A stretch of DNA of 64,000 bases from Candidatus Forterrea multitransposorum CG_2015-17_Forterrea_25_41 (lineage in GTDB: Archaea; Iainarchaeota; Iainarchaeia; Iainarchaeales; CSSED10-239), in assembly GCA_009392915.1 (NCBI GenBank), contig CP045477.1, positions 1 through 64,000 on the forward strand, read 5' to 3'. A program made the translations under genes and the position numbers. How positions within the stretch are numbered: the stretch's first letter is position 1; every line of letters starts with the position of its first letter. Positions 16,280 through 38,462 of this stretch are shown here, piece after piece. A model generated the notes under the pieces. The model worked only from the letters and a program-made list of their open reading frames with translations. It was not told where the DNA came from and ran no database searches.

Positions 16280-16306
16280 TTTTAAATTTTAAAAAATGTG
16301 TTTTTT

Positions 16307-18844
16307 ATGGATGATGCAAATTTAATGCTTTTAAAAAAGAAAGTAAAAGCTATAAAACAATATAAAGGCCAAGGTACTCAACTTATAAGTCTTTATCTTC
16401 CACCTGATGCAGATAGAAGTTCTGCAACAAAACAATTAACTGATGAAATGAGTCAATCTTCAAATATTAAGAGTGCTCAGACTAGAAAAAATGTACAAGC
16501 AGCTTTAAAAAGAATTATTAATTATTTAAAACAAATTGATTTTAAACTTCCTGAAACAGGTTTAGTTTTATTTTCTGGAGATGTTTCAACTAATCCTTCT
16601 AAATCAGATGTAATTTTACTTGCAATTGCACCTCCTGTAAGACTTACAACTAAGCTTTATTGGTGTGATTCAACATTTCACATAGCTCCTTTAGAAGATA
16701 TGGCACAAACAGATGATGTTTATGGTTTAGTTGTTCTTGACAAACGAGAAGCAACAGTTGCTATTTTAAGAGGAAAATCTAAAGAAATTCTTTTTTCAGA
16801 AACCTCAAATGTTCCTGGTAAAACAAAAGCCGGGGGGCAATGTTTAAAAGATGCTTTTGTATCTTTATCTGATGGGAATTTAATAGATGTTAGTGAAATT
16901 TCTAAAAAGGATATTCTTTCTTCTATGAATTTTAAACAAAATAAATTAATTAATTCTAAGGTTTTAGATAATTGGTCAGTTTCTAAAAATAAAACATATA
17001 TTATTAAAACAAAAGCTCCTGGTACAGAAATAAAAGCTAGTGAAGATCATATATTTTTTGTTTTAACTCCAGATGGTGTTGTTGAAAAAGCTTCAAAAGA
17101 TTTAACTTTAAATGATTATTTGTTATTTCCAGAAAAATTATCTTATAAAAATAAAATTTGGTCTTTTGATACTAAAAAATATATTTCTAAATTAAATAAA
17201 CCTTCTATAAAGATACCTATAAAACTTAATAATGTATTTGCTAAATTTTTAGGTTATTTATTAGGTGATGGTTCTATTGAAACTGATAGATTAACTTTTT
17301 ATGAATCTAGAAAAGATGTTATTTTAGAATATAAAAAGTTATTTGATAAATATTTTAATGTAAATTCTTCTTTAACTTTTAGAGATTCTAAAAATTATTA
17401 TCAATTAAGAGTTAATTCAACTGCTCTTGTAAGATTAATTAAAGAAGAATTTAAGGAAATTAAAAAAGCAAGAGATTCTTTAATACCTTCTAAAATATTA
17501 ACTTCTTCTAATAAAATATTAGCTAATTTTTTAAAAGGATTTTATGATGCTGAAGGTTATATTAATACTTCTAGAAAATCAATAGATATTGGAATAAATA
17601 ATAAAAAAATTGCACAACAACTTCAATTATCATTATTAAGATTTTCAATTATTGGATCTTTACAAGAATATGATAATAAACAAAATCCTTATACAAATAA
17701 CCATAGGTTTGTGATTTCAATTTCTGATAAAGAGTCAATAGATTCTTTTGAAAAAAATATTAATTTTACTTCTTTTGAAAAGCAAAAAAAAATAAAAAAA
17801 ATTCAAAAATTAAAAACAAACATGAGTTTCTCAAGAACACTTCCTGTATATGGTAGTCAGGTTAGATCTGTTGTTACAAAACATGGTTATAATTTAGAAC
17901 TTTTCCCAAAAGTGAGTAGTTTTTTCAATAATAATAGAATGCTTAGTAAATGCTTTTTTAAAAGTTCTGTTTTAGATTATGTTAAAGATAAATCTCTTTT
18001 AAAAGATTTAATTAAATTTTATAATATGCCATTTTTTGCTGCAAAGATAAATTCTATATTTATTGAAAAAAAGAAAACAATTATGACAGACATTTCTGTT
18101 GCTAATAAATCTTTTATTGCAAATGGATTAATTGTTCATAATTCAGCACATAGATTCGAAAGACTAAGAGATAAATATGAAGAAGAGTTTTATAAGAGAG
18201 TAGGTTCTAAAGTAAATACTGCTTTTGTAGATCTTGATAATTTTAAAGGAATGATTGTTGGTGGTCCTGGACTTACTAAAAATGAATTTTTAGAAATTGG
18301 TGATTTAGACCACAGAATAAAAGATAAAGTTTTAGGAACTGTAGATACTTCTTATACAGATGAGTCAGGTATAAAAGAAGTTTTAGATAAATCTGAAGAT
18401 ATTTTAAAAGAAACTGGTTTAGTTCATGAAAGAAAATTAATTAATAAGTTTTTTGAAGACTTAGCAAAAACAGGCCTTGCAAATTATGGTTTTCAAGATG
18501 TAATTGATGCCTTAAATATTGGTAAAGCTTCAACTGTTTTAGTGTCTGAAGGTTTAGAATGGACTGTTTTAATTTTTAAATGTTTATCAGACAAATCTAG
18601 ATTTATAAAAATTGTTAAAGATAAACATGAAGTTTCTGATACTATCTCAAAATTTGAAAATTCTCCAACAGATTGTCCAGAAGGTAAAGCAGAACTTGTT
18701 GAAGAAGTTGATATATATGATTATTTTATAGATATTTCTAAAAATACAAGTGCAAAAGTTGAACTTATTTCTATTGAAACTTTAGAAGGTAAACAATTTT
18801 TTGAAACTTTTGGAGGGCTTGCAGCTTTCTTAAGATATAGGTAA
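16307..18844 (+). CDS. prf1: peptide chain release factor aRF1, interrupted by an intein
   Basis: The exteins join to ...VPGKTKAGGQ|SAHRFERLRDKY..., the canonical aRF1 GGQSxxRF region. NIKS-like SNIKSAQTR in the N-domain. Confidence 0.9.
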   Translation: MDDANLMLLKKKVKAIKQYKGQGTQLISLYLPPDADRSSATKQLTDEMSQSSNIKSAQTRKNVQAALKRIINYLKQIDFKLPETGLVLFSGDVSTNPSKSDVILLAIAPPVRLTTKLYWCDSTFHIAPLEDMAQTDDVYGLVVLDKREATVAILRGKSKEILFSETSNVPGKTKAGGQCLKDAFVSLSDGNLIDVSEISKKDILSSMNFKQNKLINSKVLDNWSVSKNKTYIIKTKAPGTEIKASEDHIFFVLTPDGVVEKASKDLTLNDYLLFPEKLSYKNKIWSFDTKKYISKLNKPSIKIPIKLNNVFAKFLGYLLGDGSIETDRLTFYESRKDVILEYKKLFDKYFNVNSSLTFRDSKNYYQLRVNSTALVRLIKEEFKEIKKARDSLIPSKILTSSNKILANFLKGFYDAEGYINTSRKSIDIGINNKKIAQQLQLSLLRFSIIGSLQEYDNKQNPYTNNHRFVISISDKESIDSFEKNINFTSFEKQKKIKKIQKLKTNMSFSRTLPVYGSQVRSVVTKHGYNLELFPKVSSFFNNNRMLSKCFFKSSVLDYVKDKSLLKDLIKFYNMPFFAAKINSIFIEKKKTIMTDISVANKSFIANGLIVHNSAHRFERLRDKYEEEFYKRVGSKVNTAFVDLDNFKGMIVGGPGLTKNEFLEIGDLDHRIKDKVLGTVDTSYTDESGIKEVLDKSEDILKETGLVHERKLINKFFEDLAKTGLANYGFQDVIDALNIGKASTVLVSEGLEWTVLIFKCLSDKSRFIKIVKDKHEVSDTISKFENSPTDCPEGKAELVEEVDIYDYFIDISKNTSAKVELISIETLEGKQFFETFGGLAAFLRYR
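16841..18142 (+). mobile_element. intein (434 aa) with LAGLIDADG homing endonuclease, inserted after the GGQ motif of aRF1
   Basis: Starts with Cys (CLKDAFVSLSDG, block A) and ends ...GLIVHN followed by Ser. LAGLIDADG blocks LGYLLGDGS and LKGFYDAEGY. In frame with the aRF1 exteins. Confidence 0.85.
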
Positions 18845-23653: not shown

Positions 23654-23699
23654 TATTGTCTAACCTATTTTATTACTAGATAAAGGAGGTTAGACAATA
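23654..23699 (+). promoter_or_regulatory. 13-bp perfect stem-loop occluding the transposase SD and start codon
   Basis: TATTGTCTAACCT (23654-23666) pairs with AGGTTAGACAATA (23687-23699). The right arm covers part of GGAGG and the A of the ATG. Confidence 0.5.
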
Positions 23700-24661
23700 T
23701 GAATATTAAGAACGAAAAGATTAATAAAAGGAACTGGTCAAAGATAAATTATGGAAAAACAAGACAAATCTTGTTTTTACTAGATAAAAACATTATTTTT
23801 AGTGAAAATGAAAGACTAGTTTCCCAAAATAAAAACAAACCAGGAAGACAATTTATATATAGTGATAGAATAATAGAACTATTAATTGATCTTAAAAATT
23901 ATTTTAAATTTGATTATCGTAAACTACAGGCATTCTGCCTGTTGTTTAATAATGTTATAAAAATAAAAACACCTGACTTTACAACTATTTGTAGAAGAAT
24001 GCACAAATTAGAATTATTTCTAAAAAATATAAAAACAAAAAAAGAACCAACCTTTATAGCTATAGATGGTTCTGGACTTCAAACTACTAATCGAGGAGAA
24101 TGGCTTAGATTAATACACAAAAAAGGAAAAATAAACTTAAGAAATGGATTTGTAAAATTAGTGATTGCAACAGATGTTGCATCTGGAGAAATAACTGGAG
24201 TGTATATTTCAGATGATTCTGATTTTGAAAATAAAAGCTTATCAGATTTATTATACCAAACAATAAATAATCAAAACCAAGAAGTCAAAGGACTTCTTGG
24301 AGATGGGGCATACGATTCTTATGATAACTTTGATATGCTTGATGATATGGGAATAAAACCAATTATCAAAATCAGAAAGAATGCAATTACAACAGAACCT
24401 AATGACGATTATTTAAAAAGAAGAAGAAAACTTGGAAAAAAGAAAAAAATAAAAAGAATTGAAGTTGCAAAAAAGCAACTTAAAAATGTAGATGACTGGA
24501 AACAAAAAAATGAGTATAATAAAAGGTGGGTTGTTGAATACACGTTTAGTGTATTCAAAAGACTATTCGGACATAGTGTGTACTCTAAAAGAAAGAAATA
24601 TGTCAAAAATGAAGTAATTTCTAAAGTAAATTTGTATAATAAATTATTAAATATCAATTAA
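23699..24661 (+). CDS. DDE transposase, IS4/IS5 superfamily
   Basis: D (IAIDGSG), D (LLGDGAYDS) and an exact Y-x2-R-x3-E-x6-K signature (YNKRWVVEYTFSVFK). Confidence 0.85.
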   Translation: MNIKNEKINKRNWSKINYGKTRQILFLLDKNIIFSENERLVSQNKNKPGRQFIYSDRIIELLIDLKNYFKFDYRKLQAFCLLFNNVIKIKTPDFTTICRRMHKLELFLKNIKTKKEPTFIAIDGSGLQTTNRGEWLRLIHKKGKINLRNGFVKLVIATDVASGEITGVYISDDSDFENKSLSDLLYQTINNQNQEVKGLLGDGAYDSYDNFDMLDDMGIKPIIKIRKNAITTEPNDDYLKRRRKLGKKKKIKRIEVAKKQLKNVDDWKQKNEYNKRWVVEYTFSVFKRLFGHSVYSKRKKYVKNEVISKVNLYNKLLNIN

Positions 24662-24818: not shown

Positions 24819-26192
24819 ATGGCTATAGACAAAAGATTTTTTTTAGGGATAACTATTAGTAAAAAAAGAAAAGCAATTTCTCCTTTAATTGCCACTATTC
24901 TTTTAATAGTTGTTGCCGTTGCAATTATAGCTATTATTGTTTCCTGGGGAAAAGGATTTACCAATGATTCTTTAAGCAAAGCCTCTGGTCTTGAAATTTA
25001 CACTGAATCAGAAACTTCTTTTTACTTGCAAGTAAAAAATTCAATAAACGGAAGAACTGTTGTTCAATATAATCCTCCTTATAATTCTCCTCACACCTCT
25101 TTAACCATAACAGGTTATAGCCTACATGGTAACACGAATATTAATCCCATAGATCCACCAATTACAATAACTGCAAACCAAACTGCAGTTATTGATCATG
25201 GTATTTTATTTCCAGAATTAAATTTAGTTTTATATTTGGATAATGATCGAATGATTATTAAAACTGATCTTTTACAAACTATTAAATCTCCTCTTTCTTG
25301 TCCAGAAGGTTATGTTTCTGTTCCAGGAAACCACTTATATGGAACTATGAATGAAAGTGGGGGTTTTTGTGTTTCAAAATATGAGATGAAAATGGATAGA
25401 ACAGGAGATGGAATAGGAAATCTTGTAGCTGATTATCCTGATTGTAACACCGGTTCTTTAACATATAATACTTATAGTTATGAATTATGCCCTACACCAG
25501 GCACTTTAGTTTCTACTCCAGAAGGTTCTCCCATAGCAAGAATCACACAAACTGAAAGCATATCAGCCTGTGAAGCTATTGGTGGTCATTTAATAACAAA
25601 TAACGAATGGATGACCATTGTACGAAACATAGAACAAGTTCCATCTAATTGGTCAGGTGGAGCAGTTGGTGATGGCTACCTTCCAAGAGGGAATTCATCT
25701 TCTTCAGGAGCTATGGAAGGCTTTGATCAACTTTCAGGAACTACCAAAAGAACCTTGACCTTAACAAACGGAGAGGTAATTTGGGATTTAGCAGGAAATG
25801 TAAGACAATGGACCAGTGACACTATTCAAAGAAAGGACCAGCCTGATGGTTTTAATAATGTAGATGATAGTAATAATACTTCTGGTTTTAATTGGTTTGA
25901 TTATTTTAAGGGCGGTGGAGTAGATCAATATATTTATTCTGATAATTTAGGTAACACCACCTTAAAGTATAAAGATTTATTTTTATTAACTAGTAATACT
26001 TATAATGCAACAGATAATGGTGTTGGAAGGATTTATACTTATAGTGATTTTAGTGATACTAGTACAACTGAGTACGCGTTTTTGCGCGGTGGTCACTGGG
26101 GCAATGGCACTAATGCCGGGGTCTTGCACCTGGTCTTGAACAAGACTCCTGGGTCCCGGAGCATCCTCATCGGCCTGCGCTGTGTCAAGTAG
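24819..26192 (+). CDS. DGR target protein: archaeal pilin-type class III signal peptide, linker, FGE/C-type-lectin-fold domain with C-terminal variable region
   Basis: N-terminus KKRKAISPLIATILLIVVAVAIIAIIV (DUF1628-like). FGE-sulfatase-like motifs SKYEM, GGHLITNNEW, WDLAGNVRQW, RGGHW and IGLRCVK. The last ~39 codons are the VR matching the TR downstream. Confidence 0.9.
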   Translation: MAIDKRFFLGITISKKRKAISPLIATILLIVVAVAIIAIIVSWGKGFTNDSLSKASGLEIYTESETSFYLQVKNSINGRTVVQYNPPYNSPHTSLTITGYSLHGNTNINPIDPPITITANQTAVIDHGILFPELNLVLYLDNDRMIIKTDLLQTIKSPLSCPEGYVSVPGNHLYGTMNESGGFCVSKYEMKMDRTGDGIGNLVADYPDCNTGSLTYNTYSYELCPTPGTLVSTPEGSPIARITQTESISACEAIGGHLITNNEWMTIVRNIEQVPSNWSGGAVGDGYLPRGNSSSSGAMEGFDQLSGTTKRTLTLTNGEVIWDLAGNVRQWTSDTIQRKDQPDGFNNVDDSNNTSGFNWFDYFKGGGVDQYIYSDNLGNTTLKYKDLFLLTSNTYNATDNGVGRIYTYSDFSDTSTTEYAFLRGGHWGNGTNAGVLHLVLNKTPGSRSILIGLRCVK

Positions 26193-26195
26193 TTT
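26075..26195 (+). repeat. DGR variable repeat (VR)
   Basis: 121 bp aligns without gaps to 27300-27420. There are 13 mismatches, 12 of them at TR adenines. GC-rich compared with its surroundings. Confidence 0.9.
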
Positions 26196-26498: not shown

Positions 26499-26885
26499 AT
26501 GAGTTTAGTTGGAAATGAAAAAGGAATTCTAAATTTTGGTGTTTACAAGGAGCTTTTCCCAATCGTTATTGAAACTTATAATTTTTTAGAAAATAATAAA
26601 TCTTTATTTAAAGTAGATTTTGTTTATACAGATACTGTTAAAAATTTAATAGATATTCTTTCTTTTCTTTCCAAAGGGTATAATAAATTTCATTCTAATG
26701 AAAAATCTTTACTTTACTCTTATTCAAGAGATTGTGTTTCTACAACCCAATCTAATCTTTTAATATTATCTGAACTTAATAAAGATCTCTCAAAAGAAAA
26801 AACCTTATATTTTTATAATCAATTTGAGGATAAAATAAAGTATTTTAATGGTTTAATAAAAAAGATTGAAGAAAATAAAAACTAG
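26499..26885 (+). CDS. divergent four-helix-bundle (Avd-like) protein
   Basis: 128 aa with predicted helical repeats that loosely parallel Avd (VYKELFPIVIETYNFL..., LLILSELNKDL..., YFNGLIKKIE). Positioned directly upstream of avd. Confidence 0.4.
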   Translation: MSLVGNEKGILNFGVYKELFPIVIETYNFLENNKSLFKVDFVYTDTVKNLIDILSFLSKGYNKFHSNEKSLLYSYSRDCVSTTQSNLLILSELNKDLSKEKTLYFYNQFEDKIKYFNGLIKKIEENKN

Positions 26886-26896
26886 GGTATATTATT

Positions 26897-27226
26897 ATGT
26901 TATTTGACTTAAAGTTATATAAAGAAACTTATAACTTTTTACTTTATATTTATCCTGAAATAAATAAATTCCCTAAATCAGATAAATATTCTTTAGGAGA
27001 GGATATTAAAAAAACAACTATTTCTTTAATGTCAAATATTGTTCTTTTTTCAAAGCATAATGAAAATACTTTAAAAGAAGCAGATAAAAACTTAGAATTA
27101 CTAAGAATATATATTAGGCTTTCTTTTGATTTAAAAATAATCTCTTTTAAAAAATATGAGGTTATTTCAAGGCAATTAAATGATATTGGTAATTTATTAG
27201 GTGGTCTTTTAAAACAAAAGATTTAA
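26897..27226 (+). CDS. avd: DGR accessory variability determinant (Avd; four-helix-bundle / 23S rRNA-IVS protein family)
   Basis: LYKETYNFLLYIYPEINKFPKSDKYSLGEDIKKTTISLMSNI matches the family pattern. 109 aa, located between the target gene and the TR. Confidence 0.8.
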   Translation: MLFDLKLYKETYNFLLYIYPEINKFPKSDKYSLGEDIKKTTISLMSNIVLFSKHNENTLKEADKNLELLRIYIRLSFDLKIISFKKYEVISRQLNDIGNLLGGLLKQKI

Positions 27227-27299
27227 ATATTTTTTCAACTAATAGTTATGTTGTTCTTTTAAATAAAAAGAATAGGGCTTTTACAGAAAAAAACAGGTG

Positions 27300-27420
27300 C
27301 GCGTTTTTGCGCGGTGGTAACTGGAACAATGGCACTAATGCCGGGGTCTTGAACCTGAACTTGAACAATACTCCTGGGAACCGGAACAACAACATCGGCC
27401 TGCGCTGTGTCAAGTAGTTT
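27300..27420 (+). repeat. DGR template repeat (TR)
   Basis: Non-coding copy of the VR, rich in AAC/AAT triplets in the VR frame (G N W N N G T N A G V L N L N L N N T P G N R N N N I G L R C V K). Lies 258 bp upstream of the RT gene. Confidence 0.9.
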
Positions 27421-27678: not shown

Positions 27679-28695
27679 ATGAAATCATACAATAACCTTT
27701 GGCAAGAATTCACTTCTTTTAAAAATATTTTTAATGCCTATAAAAAAGCAAGAAAGTCCACACCAAACAAAAAGTATATCTTGCAATTTACCACAAATTT
27801 AGAAAAGGAGTTATTCTTATTACAAGATCAATTAATTTCAGAAAATTTTCAATTTTCTCCTTACAGAAGTTTTAAAGTTTATGAACCTAAAGAAAGAACA
27901 ATAAGTGCACCTATTTTCAGGGATGTTGTTGTTCAGCATGCCATAATAAACATTATTGAACCTATTTTTGATAAAACCTTTATAGATAACTCTTTTGCTT
28001 GTAGAAAAGGAAAAGGCACACATAAAGGGCTTTTTGAAATTAAAAAAGTAATTCAAACCCCAAATCATCCAAAATACTATTTAAAACAAGATGTAAAGAA
28101 ATACTTTCCTTCAGTTCATAAACCTACCTTAAAAGAAATAATTTTTAAAAGAATTAAGGATGCAAGATTACTTTCTCTAATATATAAAATAATTGATAGT
28201 TATTCTTTTGATTTAAATCAAATTCAAAAAGGTATCCCTATAGGTAATTTAACCTCTCAGTTGTTTGCAAATATTTATTTAAACCATTTAGATCAGTATG
28301 TTAAGCATTCTTTAAAAATTAAACATTATTATAGATATGTAGATGATTTTTTAATATTTTCAAACAATAAAAGAAAATTACATGTTTTTAGAAGAAAAAT
28401 AAAATTATTTTTAAGTAAAGAACTATTATTAGATGTTCCAAAAAATAAAACTTATATAAACTTAGTAAGTAAAGGAGTTGATTTTTTAGGTTATAAGGTA
28501 TTTCCTTCAAACATAAGATTAAGAAAATCAAATCTTAAAAGATTTCTTCTAAGACAAAATAAAAATAACTTTCTTCTAAAAAAAAATCAAATTTCTAAAC
28601 TTAACTATAATTTTTCTCTTTTTTCTTTTTTAGGTTATGCAAAGCATGCAAACTCTTATAATCTCTTAAGTACTTTAAATATTAATGAGTTATAG
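27679..28695 (+). CDS. DGR-type reverse transcriptase
   Basis: RT motifs SAPIFRDVVVQHAI, IPIGNLTSQLFANIYL (DGR-typical [I/L]GxxxSQ) and YVDDFLIF. 338 aa, adjacent to the TR. Confidence 0.9.
   Translation: MKSYNNLWQEFTSFKNIFNAYKKARKSTPNKKYILQFTTNLEKELFLLQDQLISENFQFSPYRSFKVYEPKERTISAPIFRDVVVQHAIINIIEPIFDKTFIDNSFACRKGKGTHKGLFEIKKVIQTPNHPKYYLKQDVKKYFPSVHKPTLKEIIFKRIKDARLLSLIYKIIDSYSFDLNQIQKGIPIGNLTSQLFANIYLNHLDQYVKHSLKIKHYYRYVDDFLIFSNNKRKLHVFRRKIKLFLSKELLLDVPKNKTYINLVSKGVDFLGYKVFPSNIRLRKSNLKRFLLRQNKNNFLLKKNQISKLNYNFSLFSFLGYAKHANSYNLLSTLNINEL
28589..28687 (+). repeat. 99-bp direct repeat, copy 1 (3' end of the RT gene)
   Basis: Identical base for base to 30138-30236. Confidence 0.9.
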
Positions 28696-28838
28696 TTTAT
28701 TTTTATTATGGGCACTTGAGCGTCTATTTTAAACTTAAATTATAATCTTTTACTAACGCACTATACCTTAATTATAATCTTCTATCAAAAGACTATATTT
28801 AAAAATGTTTTTATTATATATTATATTAGTGATAAAAT

Positions 28839-30104
28839 ATGGATAAAGCTTTTTTAAGAAACGTTGTTTCTGACCAGTATGAAGATTTAAAAGATGTTTC
28901 AAAAACAATACAAAGATATGATTCAAAAGAAATAGCGCGCTTTGTAAATAATCCTGCTATATCTATAATTTCAGGAGTAAGGCGTTGTGGTAAGTCCACT
29001 TTTTTAGAGCAGATAATAAATTTATATTATAAAAATAACTTTTATTATTTTGATTTTTCTGATGAAAGAATTGCAAAATTTGAAACTGCTGACTTTCAAA
29101 CATTATATGAGGTGTTTTTAGAAAAATTTGGAAAAAGACAGGCTTTTTTCTTTGATGAAATACAAGGAGTTCCAGAATGGAATAAATTTGTTAATAGAAT
29201 GAAAAAGATTGGGCATAAATGTTTTGTAACCGGTTCAAATTCAAATTTGTTAAGTCAAGAAATATCTACTTATCTAACAGGAAGACATATTGATAAAATC
29301 TTATTCCCTTTTTCCTTTAAAGAATATTTAACGTATAAAAATATTAATGTAGATTTAGATTCTACAAAATCAAGAACCTTAATTATTAAAGAGTTTAAAA
29401 ATTACTTTAAAATAGGTGGTTTTCCAGAGGTTGTTTTAACAAACGATACTTCAATTTTATTAAATATTTATTCTGACATAATTTCTAAAGATATAATTGA
29501 AAGATTTAGGATTAATGATGTTTCTTTATTTAAAGAATTTTGTAATTATGTAATTTCTTTATCTACGAATGAATTTACTTTTAAATCATTAAAAGATAAT
29601 TTTAATATTCAGAATATTACTACTGTTTCAAACTATCTTGATTATCTTAAATTAACTTACCTTGTTTATGAAGTTAAAAGATTTTCTTCTTCATTACAAA
29701 AATTAAATAAATATCCAAAAAAATATTATTGTATAGATAATGGTTTATTAAATAAAGTGGGTTTTGGATATTCAATAGAGGAAACTAGATTTTTAGAAAA
29801 TCAAGTTTTTATTGAACTTTGGAGAAATAATCCGCAATCTGAAATTTATTATTATAGAGATAAGGATAATAAAGAATGTGATTTTTTATTGTTAAATGAT
29901 AGAAAAGTAGTTAAGGCTATTCAAGTGTGTTTTGCTTTTAAAAAGATAGATACTAGAAAAAGAGAAATAGAAGGTTTACTATCTGCTTTAAAAGAGTTTA
30001 ATCTAAATTATGGCGAAATTATTACTTTTGAGCATAAAGAAAAATTAAAGATAGATGGAAAAGTAATAGAGATGATTCCTGTATATGAGTGGTTATTAAA
30101 ATAA
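28839..30104 (+). CDS. AAA-family ATPase (AAA_14 + DUF4143 type)
   Basis: Walker A SGVRRCGKST, Walker B FFFDEIQ; 421 aa. Sits between the two 99-bp repeat copies. Confidence 0.75.
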   Translation: MDKAFLRNVVSDQYEDLKDVSKTIQRYDSKEIARFVNNPAISIISGVRRCGKSTFLEQIINLYYKNNFYYFDFSDERIAKFETADFQTLYEVFLEKFGKRQAFFFDEIQGVPEWNKFVNRMKKIGHKCFVTGSNSNLLSQEISTYLTGRHIDKILFPFSFKEYLTYKNINVDLDSTKSRTLIIKEFKNYFKIGGFPEVVLTNDTSILLNIYSDIISKDIIERFRINDVSLFKEFCNYVISLSTNEFTFKSLKDNFNIQNITTVSNYLDYLKLTYLVYEVKRFSSSLQKLNKYPKKYYCIDNGLLNKVGFGYSIEETRFLENQVFIELWRNNPQSEIYYYRDKDNKECDFLLLNDRKVVKAIQVCFAFKKIDTRKREIEGLLSALKEFNLNYGEIITFEHKEKLKIDGKVIEMIPVYEWLLK

Positions 30105-30137
30105 TTTTTTTTAATTTTAAAAAAGGCTTTACCTTTA

Positions 30138-30236
30138 AAATTTCTAAACTTAACTATAATTTTTCTCTTTTTTCTTTTTTAGGTTATGCAAAGCATGCAA
30201 ACTCTTATAATCTCTTAAGTACTTTAAATATTAATG
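30138..30236 (+). repeat. 99-bp direct repeat, copy 2 (orphan duplicate of the RT 3' end)
   Basis: Identical to 28589-28687. It is no longer attached to an RT ORF. Confidence 0.9.
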
Positions 30237-30336
30237 GTTTTATAGTGTAGATTCTCTTTGCATTAAAAATATTGTTTTTGAAAAAAACAAAGCTTTAAAT
30301 TTTGTTTATTTATATAATATATTAGGTGAAAGCAAT

Positions 30337-30549
30337 ATGAAATATAGAGTTTTAATAGAACAAGACGAAGATGGTATCTTTGTTGCTGAATGCCCTAGTC
30401 TTCCAGGTGCAATTTCTCAAGGAAAAACAAGAGAAGAAGCAATAATAAATATTAAAGAAGCCATAAAAGGTTATCTTGAAAGTTTAAAGATAGCTAATGA
30501 ACCAATTCCTTCTCCAATATCTGAAGAAATAATTGATATTTATGGATAA
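30337..30549 (+). CDS. hicB: HicB-family antitoxin (UPF0150)
   Basis: YRVLIEQDEDGIFVAECPSLPGAISQGKTREEAIINIKEAI matches the HicB/UPF0150 pattern. Confidence 0.8.
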   Translation: MKYRVLIEQDEDGIFVAECPSLPGAISQGKTREEAIINIKEAIKGYLESLKIANEPIPSPISEEIIDIYG

Positions 30550-30766
30550 ACTGCCTATTATATCTGGTCAAGATTTAATCAAATTACTTCTAAAATTAGA
30601 TTATCAAGTTCATCATCAAACTGGATCACATATTATCTTAAGACAAAATAAAGAACCTTTTAGAAGATTAACAATTCCAAACCATAAAGAAATTTCAATA
30701 GGGACTTTAAGAGCAATTATAAGGCAAGTTGGAATAACAAGAGAAGAATTTGTTAAATTATTCTAA
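30542..30766 (+). CDS. hicA: HicA-family mRNA interferase toxin
   Basis: SGQDLIKLLLKLDY...QTGSHIILRQ...LTIPNHKEISIGTLRAIIRQ. The ATG overlaps the hicB stop (ATGGATAA). Confidence 0.85.
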   Translation: MDKLPIISGQDLIKLLLKLDYQVHHQTGSHIILRQNKEPFRRLTIPNHKEISIGTLRAIIRQVGITREEFVKLF

Positions 30767-37617: not shown

Positions 37618-37699
37618 GCAGAGGTGGCGGAGTGGTCAAACGCGCCAGCCTTGAGAGCTGGAGCCTTGCGCTACACGAGTTCGAATCTCGTCCTCTGCG
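37618..37699 (+). tRNA. tRNA-Ser (anticodon UGA)
   Basis: Acceptor GCAGAGG/CCTCTGC. Anticodon stem CCAGC/GCTGG with loop CTTGAGA. Long variable arm and T-loop TTCGAAT. Confidence 0.9.
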
Positions 37700-37730
37700 C
37701 TTTATCTTTTAAAATATAGGAATTTTTATT

Positions 37731-38063
37731 ATGATTAAAGAAAACATTTCTTTTCAAGATTTTTTAAAACTTGATATAAGAATTGGAACAATTGTTGAGG
37801 CTGAAGCTGTTGAGGGTTCTGATAAATTAATAAAATTAATAATTGATTTTAAAGATTTTAAAAGACAGATTTTAGCTGGTATTAAAACAAAATATCAACC
37901 AACTGATTTATTAAACAAACAAATTCCTGTTATTGTAAATTTAGAACCTAGAAAAATGATGGGTTTTGAAAGTCAAGGAATGATCTTAGCTGTTGGAGAT
38001 AAAACTTTAGATGCTTTACTTTTACCATCTGAGCCTGTATCGGAAGGCTCGATTGTACACTAA
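37731..38063 (+). CDS. tRNA-binding domain protein (Trbp111/CsaA/EMAP-like)
   Basis: FLKLDIRIGTIVEAEAVEGSDKLIKLIIDF...GFESQGMILA matches the OB-fold tRNA-binding domain pattern. Confidence 0.8.
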   Translation: MIKENISFQDFLKLDIRIGTIVEAEAVEGSDKLIKLIIDFKDFKRQILAGIKTKYQPTDLLNKQIPVIVNLEPRKMMGFESQGMILAVGDKTLDALLLPSEPVSEGSIVH

Positions 38064-38084
38064 TTTTTTTTTAAAACTAAAAAT

Positions 38085-38166
38085 GCAGAGGTGGCGGAGT
38101 GGTCAAACGCGCAAGCCTGGAAAGCTTGAGCCTCGTGCTACGCGAGTTCGAATCTCGTCCTCTGCG
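38085..38166 (+). tRNA. tRNA-Ser (anticodon GGA)
   Basis: Acceptor, D and T arms are the same as in the first tRNA-Ser. Anticodon stem CAAGC/GCTTG with loop CTGGAAA. Confidence 0.9.
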
Positions 38167-38197
38167 CTTTTTTCTTTTTTAATTTAATATTTATTTT

Positions 38198-38286
38198 GCA
38201 GAGATGGCGGAGTGGTCAAACGCACAAGTTTCGAAAACTTGATTAAGGTTTTTTCCTTTACATGAGTTCAAATCTCATTCTCTGCG
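38198..38286 (+). tRNA. tRNA-Ser (anticodon CGA)
   Basis: Acceptor GCAGAGA/TCTCTGC. Anticodon stem CAAGT/ACTTG with loop TTCGAAA. Long variable arm AAGG-TTTTTT-CCTT and T-loop TTCAAAT. Confidence 0.85.
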
Positions 38287-38462
38287 TAGCTGGTTTCGGT
38301 CAGCTAGCACCCAATGATTTTGCGTTTGTTAACGCTTATTTAAACTTTCTTTTTAAAAGAAGTGATTTTCCCCCAAAACTTTTTTTCTTTAAAAATTGTG
38401 TTTTAAAAATTTTTAATCTATTTTATATCTATTTAAAATACTTTTGCCTCTCTTTAATATTT

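Follow-up and report, generated by a model that had tools for sequence, protein, structure and literature searches.

A perfect 99-bp repeat around an ATPase gene at the 3′ end of a retroelement reverse transcriptase gene in an archaeal genome: a probable case of gene-end displacement by insertion

In the first 64,000 nucleotides of contig CP045477.1 from Candidatus Forterrea multitransposorum (assembly GCA_009392915.1; this whole stretch is the window referred to below), the 3′ end of the gene coding for the reverse transcriptase (RT) of a diversity-generating retroelement (DGR) occurs twice, once on each side of an ATPase gene, which raises the question of how this duplication arose, which copy is the original one and whether its perfect identity means that it is young. 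The self-comparison of the window revealed that positions 28589..28687 (copy 1, + strand) and 30138..30236 (copy 2, + strand) were identical in 99 of 99 nucleotides, and a 36-mer taken from the repeat was found at these two sites only in the 64 kb, with 0 expected by chance. Copy 1 lies in its native coding context, as the last 33 full codons of the 338-aa RT (27679..28695, + strand; Pfam RVT_1), which ends in ...NINEL-stop, whereas read-through of copy 2 would give ...NINGFIV-stop. The copies are 1,450 bp apart, and the sole open reading frame (ORF) between them codes for a 421-aa protein with AAA_14 and DUF4143 domains (28839..30104, + strand). The perfect duplication, the two alternative RT ends and the presence of a single ATPase gene between the copies had been described in an initial annotation of this DNA, and self-comparison and translation bore them out.

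That annotation had named an assembly artefact, whether through collapse or expansion of a repeat or through a chimeric join, as what would refute the observation. Such an artefact could be argued for from the fact that 99 is a common k-mer size and that the repeat coincides with the ends of some contigs: L008 and L009 begin 3 nt into copy 1, and L029 stops within copy 2, which is also the expected behaviour of a true repeat. The exact ATPase and RT proteins were indexed in 65 and 63 blocks, respectively, of the public assembly collection, and at least 13 separate JGI and ENA assemblies, with contigs of up to 441 kb, from at least 13 samples and different pipelines, all presented the order RT, copy 1, ATPase, copy 2, HicB and HicA. 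Moreover, contig L033 differed from the window at two positions over 9.5 kb, one of which was a G46T substitution in copy 1 that was absent from copy 2, and such a polymorphism private to one copy demonstrates that the two copies are separate loci. Identical junctions were also observed in a diverged strain (L028, discussed below). The 99-bp duplication is real and an assembly artefact, whose probability we regard as negligible, is effectively refuted.

The polarity of the event was established by comparison with two related loci, one from GCA_015657875.1 (L018), with an RT 76% identical to that of the window, and the other from GCA_964526055.1 (L034/L036), whose RT region was 88% identical at the DNA level. 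In L018 the genes for a helicase, the DGR target, an accessory ORF, Avd and the RT are followed by those for FKBP, a proteasome protein and CPSF, and the spacer between RT and FKBP is empty. The L034/L036 locus is syntenic: FKBP and the proteasome gene come after the RT, and neither an intact ATPase gene nor HicBA is present. BLAST and MAFFT aligned window positions 30136-30277, that is, copy 2 and about 40 nt beyond it, with the RT end and the non-coding 3′ DNA of both L018 and L034, including the RT-downstream block TTAAAAATATTGTT common to the two relatives, and the alignment of copy 1 with the same RT ends stopped at 28705. Positions 30237..30277 (+ strand) correspond to the ancestral terminal RT codons, GFIV-stop, and to native RT-downstream DNA, including TTAAAAATATTGTTT, which is present in L018 and, bar its last base, in L034. 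Since copy 2 and its flank match the RT ends of the relatives, copy 2 with its 3′ flank is the displaced ancestral RT tail, now non-coding, and the ATPase cassette is the insert, spanning approximately 28713 to 30137. On the left side, a diverged tail of the duplicated segment (28688..28712, + strand) supplies the last two codons and the stop of the present RT (E-L-stop) and then continues as ancestral-like RT-downstream DNA, with cassette-specific DNA from about 28713. On the right side, an A/T-rich spacer of 33 nt (30105..30137, + strand) extends from the ATPase stop codon to copy 2 and forms the end of the insert; in L028 this spacer is 79% identical and the junction is the same. The DNA to the left of copy 2 seemed to resemble certain RT codons in L018, but this likeness was out of register with the true alignment and was discarded as a chance match.

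The L018 and L034 alignments thus upheld the proposal that a cassette had entered the 3′ end of the RT gene and that RT sequence was duplicated in the process. The search for an empty site, suggested in the initial annotation, succeeded in part: RT is followed by FKBP in both relatives, but an empty site from the same population was not recovered. The DNA pattern expected for such a site gave 0 matches in a collection of metagenome contigs, where a control 38-mer present in the JGI contigs also gave 0; the samples in question are missing from this collection, so that the scan was uninformative and its negative DNA-pattern results carry no weight. Nothing was found in a scan of a viral collection, and the RT protein predicted for the empty site (...NINGFIV, in two strain backgrounds) had no exact match among 15 billion proteins, which is a weak negative.

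The perfect identity of the copies had been taken to imply a recent event, and this claim found no support in L028, a Logan contig from another strain (SRR14932604). Both junctions of L028 are as in the window, its cassette is 94.5% identical (5.5% diverged), and within the cassette the ATPase gene is 96.4% and the non-coding DNA 79-84% identical. The occurrence of the same junctions in a strain so diverged indicates that the insertion predates the split between the two. Moreover, the edges of the duplication have changed. Past the repeat core, similarity persists over some 13 nt, with three mismatches and one gap, before dropping to about 50% identity, and the approximately 16 nt that follow copy 1 (TTTATTTTTATTA) are still like the post-RT sequence of the relatives. 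This residual similarity and the ancestral-like tail of copy 1 point to an original duplication of about 112-126 nt, whose edges have since decayed. Both copies share derived bases that are absent from the relatives (AATG, then a 6-7-nt insertion before ATAGT), from which it follows that both tails come from the lineage of the window.

Divergence was uneven along the repeat, and the absence of any difference in 99 positions was anomalous against the background of L028. Positions 1-59 of copy 2 in this strain presented 0 differences from the window, while the flanking non-coding DNA differed by 16-21%; were copy 2 to diverge at the non-coding rate, the chance of 0/59 differences would be 0.82^59 (about 8e-6), and at the coding rate it would be about 0.12. 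In L028 the assembly covers just half of each copy, as its contig starts at repeat position 43 and ends at 59, and an extent of exact repetition read from the contig ends (positions 30-72 if the contig is a k=31 unitig) depended on assumptions and was not used. Copy 2 thus seems to behave as a constrained sequence even though it is non-coding, which suggests that its identity has been kept by repeated gene conversion from copy 1, the copy under selection as part of the RT. A structured RNA or an attC-like fold in copy 2 was also considered and found no support, since the region had 0 Rfam matches and its fold signal was no better than that of shuffled sequences (z = +0.50 for the 99 nt and z = +0.68 for a 201-nt context).

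The displaced gene belongs to a complete DGR, with target gene and variable repeat (VR), Avd, template repeat (TR) and RT. The target gene (24819..26192, + strand) codes for 457 aa with a C-terminus of the FGE-sulfatase/C-type-lectin-like kind (Pfam FGE-sulfatase) and contains the VR (26072-26195); the Avd accessory protein is encoded at 26897..27226 (+ strand; Pfam bAvd, E = 2.2e-21) in a gene order kept in L018, preceded by a 128-aa ORF with no assigned function (26499-26885), and the TR lies at 27297..27420 (+ strand). The VR/TR pair extends over 124 nt with 89% identity; TR and VR differ at 14 positions, 12 of which are TR adenines. In contigs of the same population (L001-L016), all of them with the insertion, the VR varied at 18 sites, 14 of them TR adenines, while the TR was constant, and three VR versions were found among near-identical contigs. 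Because the VR varies at TR adenines in insertion-bearing contigs, mutagenic retrohoming must still proceed with the ...NINEL enzyme, and the DGR is active in the sampled population. The 99-bp repeat encodes SLFSFLGYAKHAN, a C-terminal motif common to RT homologues. The repeat itself was considered as a second TR/VR-like pair and rejected as such, since it is perfect and has no adenine-specific mismatches.

The inserted gene was related to the candidate defence family PDC-S01 of PADLOC, matching the profile PDLC04787 over its full length (E = 1.5e-102, residues 22-421), and the AAA_14 ATPase and DUF4143 domains were recognized by Pfam; its product is a candidate single-gene defence protein of the PDC-S01 type. 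DUF4143/COG1373 is listed in a survey of the PD-(D/E)XK nuclease superfamily (PMC3424549). Upstream of the TATA box of this gene there are two imperfect direct repeats of about 32 nt (28730..28793, + strand; units 28730-28761 and 28762-28793, 72% identical) with operator-like palindromic cores of the CTTTTA..TAAAAG type. These repeats and the TATA-like region are kept upstream of ATPase orthologues 82-96% identical to that of the window in L019, L023, L024 and L028, in unrelated contexts, so they are part of the gene's own control region, a putative promoter/operator, and have no role in the insertion mechanism. The direct repeats reported in the initial annotation are thus real, with refined boundaries, but they are not recombination sites. 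Likewise, the CTTAA-TATAAT core that they were said to share with the 99-bp repeat is present, but the shared motif (CTTAAnTATAAT) is RT coding sequence there and is not kept in L034, and it was treated as coincidental. Retro-insertion of an ATPase mRNA by the RT was ruled out, given that the insert has an operator and a promoter and no A-tail at the junction. Only two relatives of the ATPase were found in reference genomes, neither of them with flanking perfect repeats.

The explanation towards which we lean, and which we consider somewhat better than an even bet, is an insertion that depended on homology, shifted the 3′ end of the RT gene and was followed by gene conversion. Incoming DNA with a single-gene cassette of about 1.42 kb, composed of the PDC-S01-type ATPase/nuclease gene with its own operator and promoter, would have recombined with the 3′ region of the RT gene, either by a Campbell-type single crossover of a circle bearing an RT-like arm or by the joining of a linear fragment through a homology anchor at one end and illegitimate joining at the other. 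The RT would have retained its conserved C-terminal motif and acquired a two-codon tip, EL-stop, while the original tail (the same 112-126 nt or so, GFIV-stop and the native 3′ DNA) would have been moved beyond the cassette and left as a dead fragment, copy 2. Since that insertion, which is old enough to be common to strains about 5% apart, the edges have decayed, and the core has stayed identical, most probably because copy 2 was repeatedly reconverted from the RT-selected copy 1. The pattern of C-terminal displacement was directly observed in the contrast between the RT ending in ...NINEL-stop and an orphan ending in ...NINGFIV-stop that, with its flank, matches the RT ends of relatives; the use of homology in the joining and the upkeep of identity by conversion are what we infer.

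Such scars are known from other systems. The prophage e14 lies between icd and icdC, the latter a C-terminal pseudogene (PMC13626634). Like e14 and phage 21 at the icd gene of E. coli, the window insert lies within the 3′ end of a protein-coding gene, whose end is replaced by element-side sequence so that the gene stays intact, and what remains of the original C-terminus is a pseudogene beyond the insert, in direct repeat. The differences are that e14 is a 15-kb prophage with an integrase and SOS-induced excision, whereas the window insert is one gene of 1.4 kb with no recombinase, that the core of the window repeat is perfectly identical while the gene tips differ (EL-stop and GFIV-stop), and that no excision product was seen in the assemblies. 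C-terminal displacement with orphan 3′ fragments has also been described at loci of Rhs proteins and type VI secretion systems (T6SS), where homology-facilitated illegitimate recombination was proposed (PMC5361080). As in the Rhs, contact-dependent inhibition (CDI) and T6SS cases, the conserved part of the gene would have served as the homology anchor, the module brings a new 3′ tip and a downstream gene, and the old 3′ end is shifted downstream as an orphan that retains part of the conserved sequence (PMC5361080). Those systems, however, swap toxin tips and immunity genes and present long orphan arrays, whereas the gene displaced here is a DGR RT, with a single orphan and a new gene unrelated to RT function. 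The window feature is one more example of a recombination scar of known type and not a new mechanism.

Several points weigh against this explanation. No donor arrangement was found in which the cassette immediately follows a homologous RT gene in some other lineage; what was observed was the remnant of a different ATPase paralogue about 190 nt after the RT in L034 and an 83% identical orthologue 4.7 kb 3′ of a DGR RT in L019. Neither a circular form nor an empty site from the same population was seen in the assemblies. Moreover, if diverged arms had undergone a simple single crossover, both copies would carry differences, so that an extra step has to be assumed, be it gene conversion or the prior identity of the arm. 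The argument for gene conversion depends on one diverged strain, L028, with half of each copy assembled, and constraint on copy 2 through some function would give the same pattern. Finally, homologous cassettes elsewhere look site-specifically integrated, which favours the alternative considered next.

The cassette could be a small element with no integrase of its own, with an attP site containing RT 3′ sequence, mobilised in trans, in which case the two copies would be attL and attR; we hold this to be unlikely, though credible. ATPase orthologues 82-85% identical to the window gene are arrayed in the manner expected of successive integrations at a tRNA gene. In L023, for example, an intact tRNA-Thr gene is followed by an ATPase gene, a 25-34-nt fragment of the tRNA 3′ end, two small ORFs, the same fragment and a second ATPase gene, and the cassettes of L019, L024, L030 and L032 each end with TTTTCACTWWAG and a tRNA-like core. 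The window insert has an intact gene at its left junction and an orphan fragment at its right one, an arrangement also seen in tRNA-targeting elements and e14; direct repeats and an unoccupied site (in L018/L034) are also what an att-type insertion would leave. Its further hallmarks, a recombinase and a shared border motif, were not found. Among 29 further window ORFs, and among the genes tabulated within ±10 kb, there was neither an integrase nor any other recombinase domain, the rest of the genome lying outside this search, in agreement with the earlier statement that no integrase is present. A profile of 14 cassette-end elements, built from L019, L023, L024, L025, L030 and L032 and run with nhmmer, gave no match at either cassette border in the window (28680-28720 and 30100-30150), even at E <= 100. 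A likeness noted by eye between the 3′ end of the window cassette (GGCTTTACCTTTA|AAATTTCT) and the TTTTCACTTTAG + TTCAATTCC element was dropped, since nhmmer did not recover it and the best window matches had E > 1 and lay elsewhere. Furthermore, the 99 bp are RT coding sequence and not tRNA-like; the identity block of 99-126 nt is exact to the RT of this lineage and 77-89% identical to those of relatives, unlike a portable attP; and the cassette end beside copy 2 is only 79% conserved in L028, with no sign of a maintained recombination site. In comparison with tRNA-targeted integrative elements and their cis-mobilisable derivatives, the orthologous DPANN cassettes of L023 are alike in lying between repeated tRNA 3′ fragments with no integrase on their contigs, whereas the window repeat is coding, three to four times longer and devoid of the conserved cassette-end element. 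The initial annotation had offered att-like integration or a recombination-mediated insertion; insertion of a cassette stood, and of the two ways of joining the homology-based one seems to us the more probable.

Another possibility, which we regard as very unlikely, is an ancestor with the order RT, spacer and ATPase, in which the unit from the RT 3′ end through the ATPase gene was tandemly duplicated and the second ATPase gene was later lost or replaced by HicBA. Tandem duplication of this region does occur in L034, with a unit of 6,351 bp, and an ATPase remnant lies downstream of its RT, but that remnant belongs to a different paralogue (40% aa identity) and is located after, not before, the ancestral RT-downstream sequence, there is no trace of an ATPase gene or operator after copy 2, and several extra steps would be needed. 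It is still harder to credit, and in our judgement extremely unlikely, that staggered cuts about 100-125 nt apart, for which the ATPase/PD-(D/E)XK nuclease of the cassette might be responsible, left gaps whose filling after the joining of the cassette gave a long target-site duplication (TSD). This would yield exact identity at insertion with no need of an RT-like donor arm, and the cassette does encode a predicted nuclease-family domain; yet we know of no element that makes duplications of about 100-125 nt, the terminal inverted repeats were unconvincing (the best pair was A/T-rich, with 76% complementarity, and did not lie at the ends), no long duplications of arbitrary target DNA surround the orthologous cassettes, and the decayed edges and the insertion common to L028 would still demand later homogenisation. 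The earlier remark that 99 bp is far too long for the TSD of a transposase agrees with these results: transposons leave TSDs of 2-15 bp and have terminal inverted repeats and a transposase, whereas here the duplication is of 99-126 nt, there are no convincing inverted repeats, and the nearest transposase gene (IS5 family, 23699-24661) is a separate element 4 kb from the repeat.

An integron cassette would fit no better. Integron insertion does not duplicate about 100 nt of its target. No GTTRRRY motif was found at the borders, the fold of the 99 nt had z = +0.5 and no integrase was found. The related contigs resemble integrons in their single-gene units, which are sometimes arrayed with short recurrent sequences between them, but the window has neither IntI nor an attC-like palindrome and its cassette has its own promoter. 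Archaeal integrons exist as a system for comparison (PMC9668308).

The related DPANN contigs deserve a description of their own. They carry arrays of single-gene cassettes coding for AAA_14-DUF4143 ATPases, a GNAT protein and small ORFs, each cassette followed by an element of about 40 nt, TTTTCACT(W)(W)AG with a core similar to a tRNA T-arm and acceptor stem (L023, 5017-7160; L019, 9480-11940; L030, 5850-5900 and 7268-7310; intergenic regions of L024 and L032). The L023 array begins at the intact tRNA-Thr gene, and no integrase was found on these short contigs. The contexts of the ATPase orthologues comprise tandem ATPase arrays (L024 and L032), a position by RadA and NYN genes 4.7 kb 3′ of another DGR (L019) and the tRNA-Thr gene (L023). 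A further array directly 3′ of a DGR was observed at L019 5328-7440, where a 23-mer, AGTTTTGCGTGGCCAGCACCCCC, occurs three times, starting 7 nt after the stop codon of a different DGR RT, and a promoter-like 29-mer occurs twice; these repeats bracket a DUF1016/YhcG nuclease cassette and an ORF6N cassette. It is conceivable, although we consider it quite unlikely, that in DPANN archaea the PDC-S01-type ATPase/nuclease genes travel as cargo in, or even drive, a cassette-mobility system not described so far, of which the 99-bp repeat would be an att-like product. Such a system would use the end element of about 40 nt (TTTTCACTWWAG with the tRNA-like core), build arrays at tRNA genes and downstream of DGRs and have no linked integrase; the RT 3′ end would be an occasional secondary site, and the repeat would be identical because it is still recombinationally active.

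The region between the RT and FKBP genes has received more than one insertion. A HicB antitoxin gene (30337-30549, + strand) and a HicA toxin gene (30533-30766, + strand), both recognized by Pfam, lie between the displaced RT tail and the FKBP gene in the window and are absent from the same spacer in L018 and L034. Judged from this distribution, HicBA is another accessory insertion, independent of the first; no repeat was detected on the flanks of 30337-30766. In L034 the spacer contains a decayed C-terminal remnant of a different ATPase paralogue (40% aa identity, E = 4e-15), about 190 nt after the RT and beyond the ancestral RT-downstream sequence. As the spacer is empty in L018, holds the remnant of this second ATPase in L034 and contains the first ATPase with HicBA in the window, it is a small hot spot for accessory genes. 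The DGR of the L034/L035 genome (GCA_964526055.1, 8300-11450) is itself dead: its VR and TR are fused into a single copy, which looks like a product of VR x TR recombination, Avd and the accessory genes are lost, the RT is split into ORFs of 71 and 142 aa, and the whole block from helicase to FKBP is tandemly duplicated, with the second copy 6,351 bp further on.

The surroundings of the locus are those of an archaeal housekeeping region, with genes for Orc1/Cdc6, PCNA, primase, TBP, the proteasome, a CPSF-type nuclease and an intein-bearing eRF1. GC makes up about 24% of the bases, and the closest proteins bear labels such as archaeon, ainarchaeum and Pacearchaeota; gene content and GC fit a DPANN-type archaeon. 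The IS5-family transposase gene at 23699-24661 adjoins the DGR target gene upstream and is absent from the syntenic site in L018 and L034, and many public contigs of the window organism end at it, which suggests that this insertion sequence is present in multiple copies. The 848-aa ORF at 16298-18844 is the eRF1 counterpart, and in L018/L034 the eRF1 gene carries an intein with a LAGLIDADG endonuclease domain (Pfam). Three tRNA-Ser genes (TGA, GGA and CGA) are clustered at 37618-38287, with exact repeats of about 34 and 28 nt between the first two, and the third overlaps the longest ORF of the next tRNA-synthetase gene, whose start varies by assembly (369, 373 or 440 aa).

The locus illustrates that a perfect repeat need not be young, since an old duplicate can stay identical through conversion by a copy under selection. 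The cassette arrays with a common end element found in related archaeal contigs are a more interesting lead than the scar in the window. For the organism, the picture is that of a streamlined DPANN archaeon that gains defence-type genes just downstream of an active DGR, in such a way that the retroelement is spared and its RT is given a new tip. Moreover, recombination between the 99-bp copies could delete the cassette, so that the presence of this defence gene may be reversible in the population.

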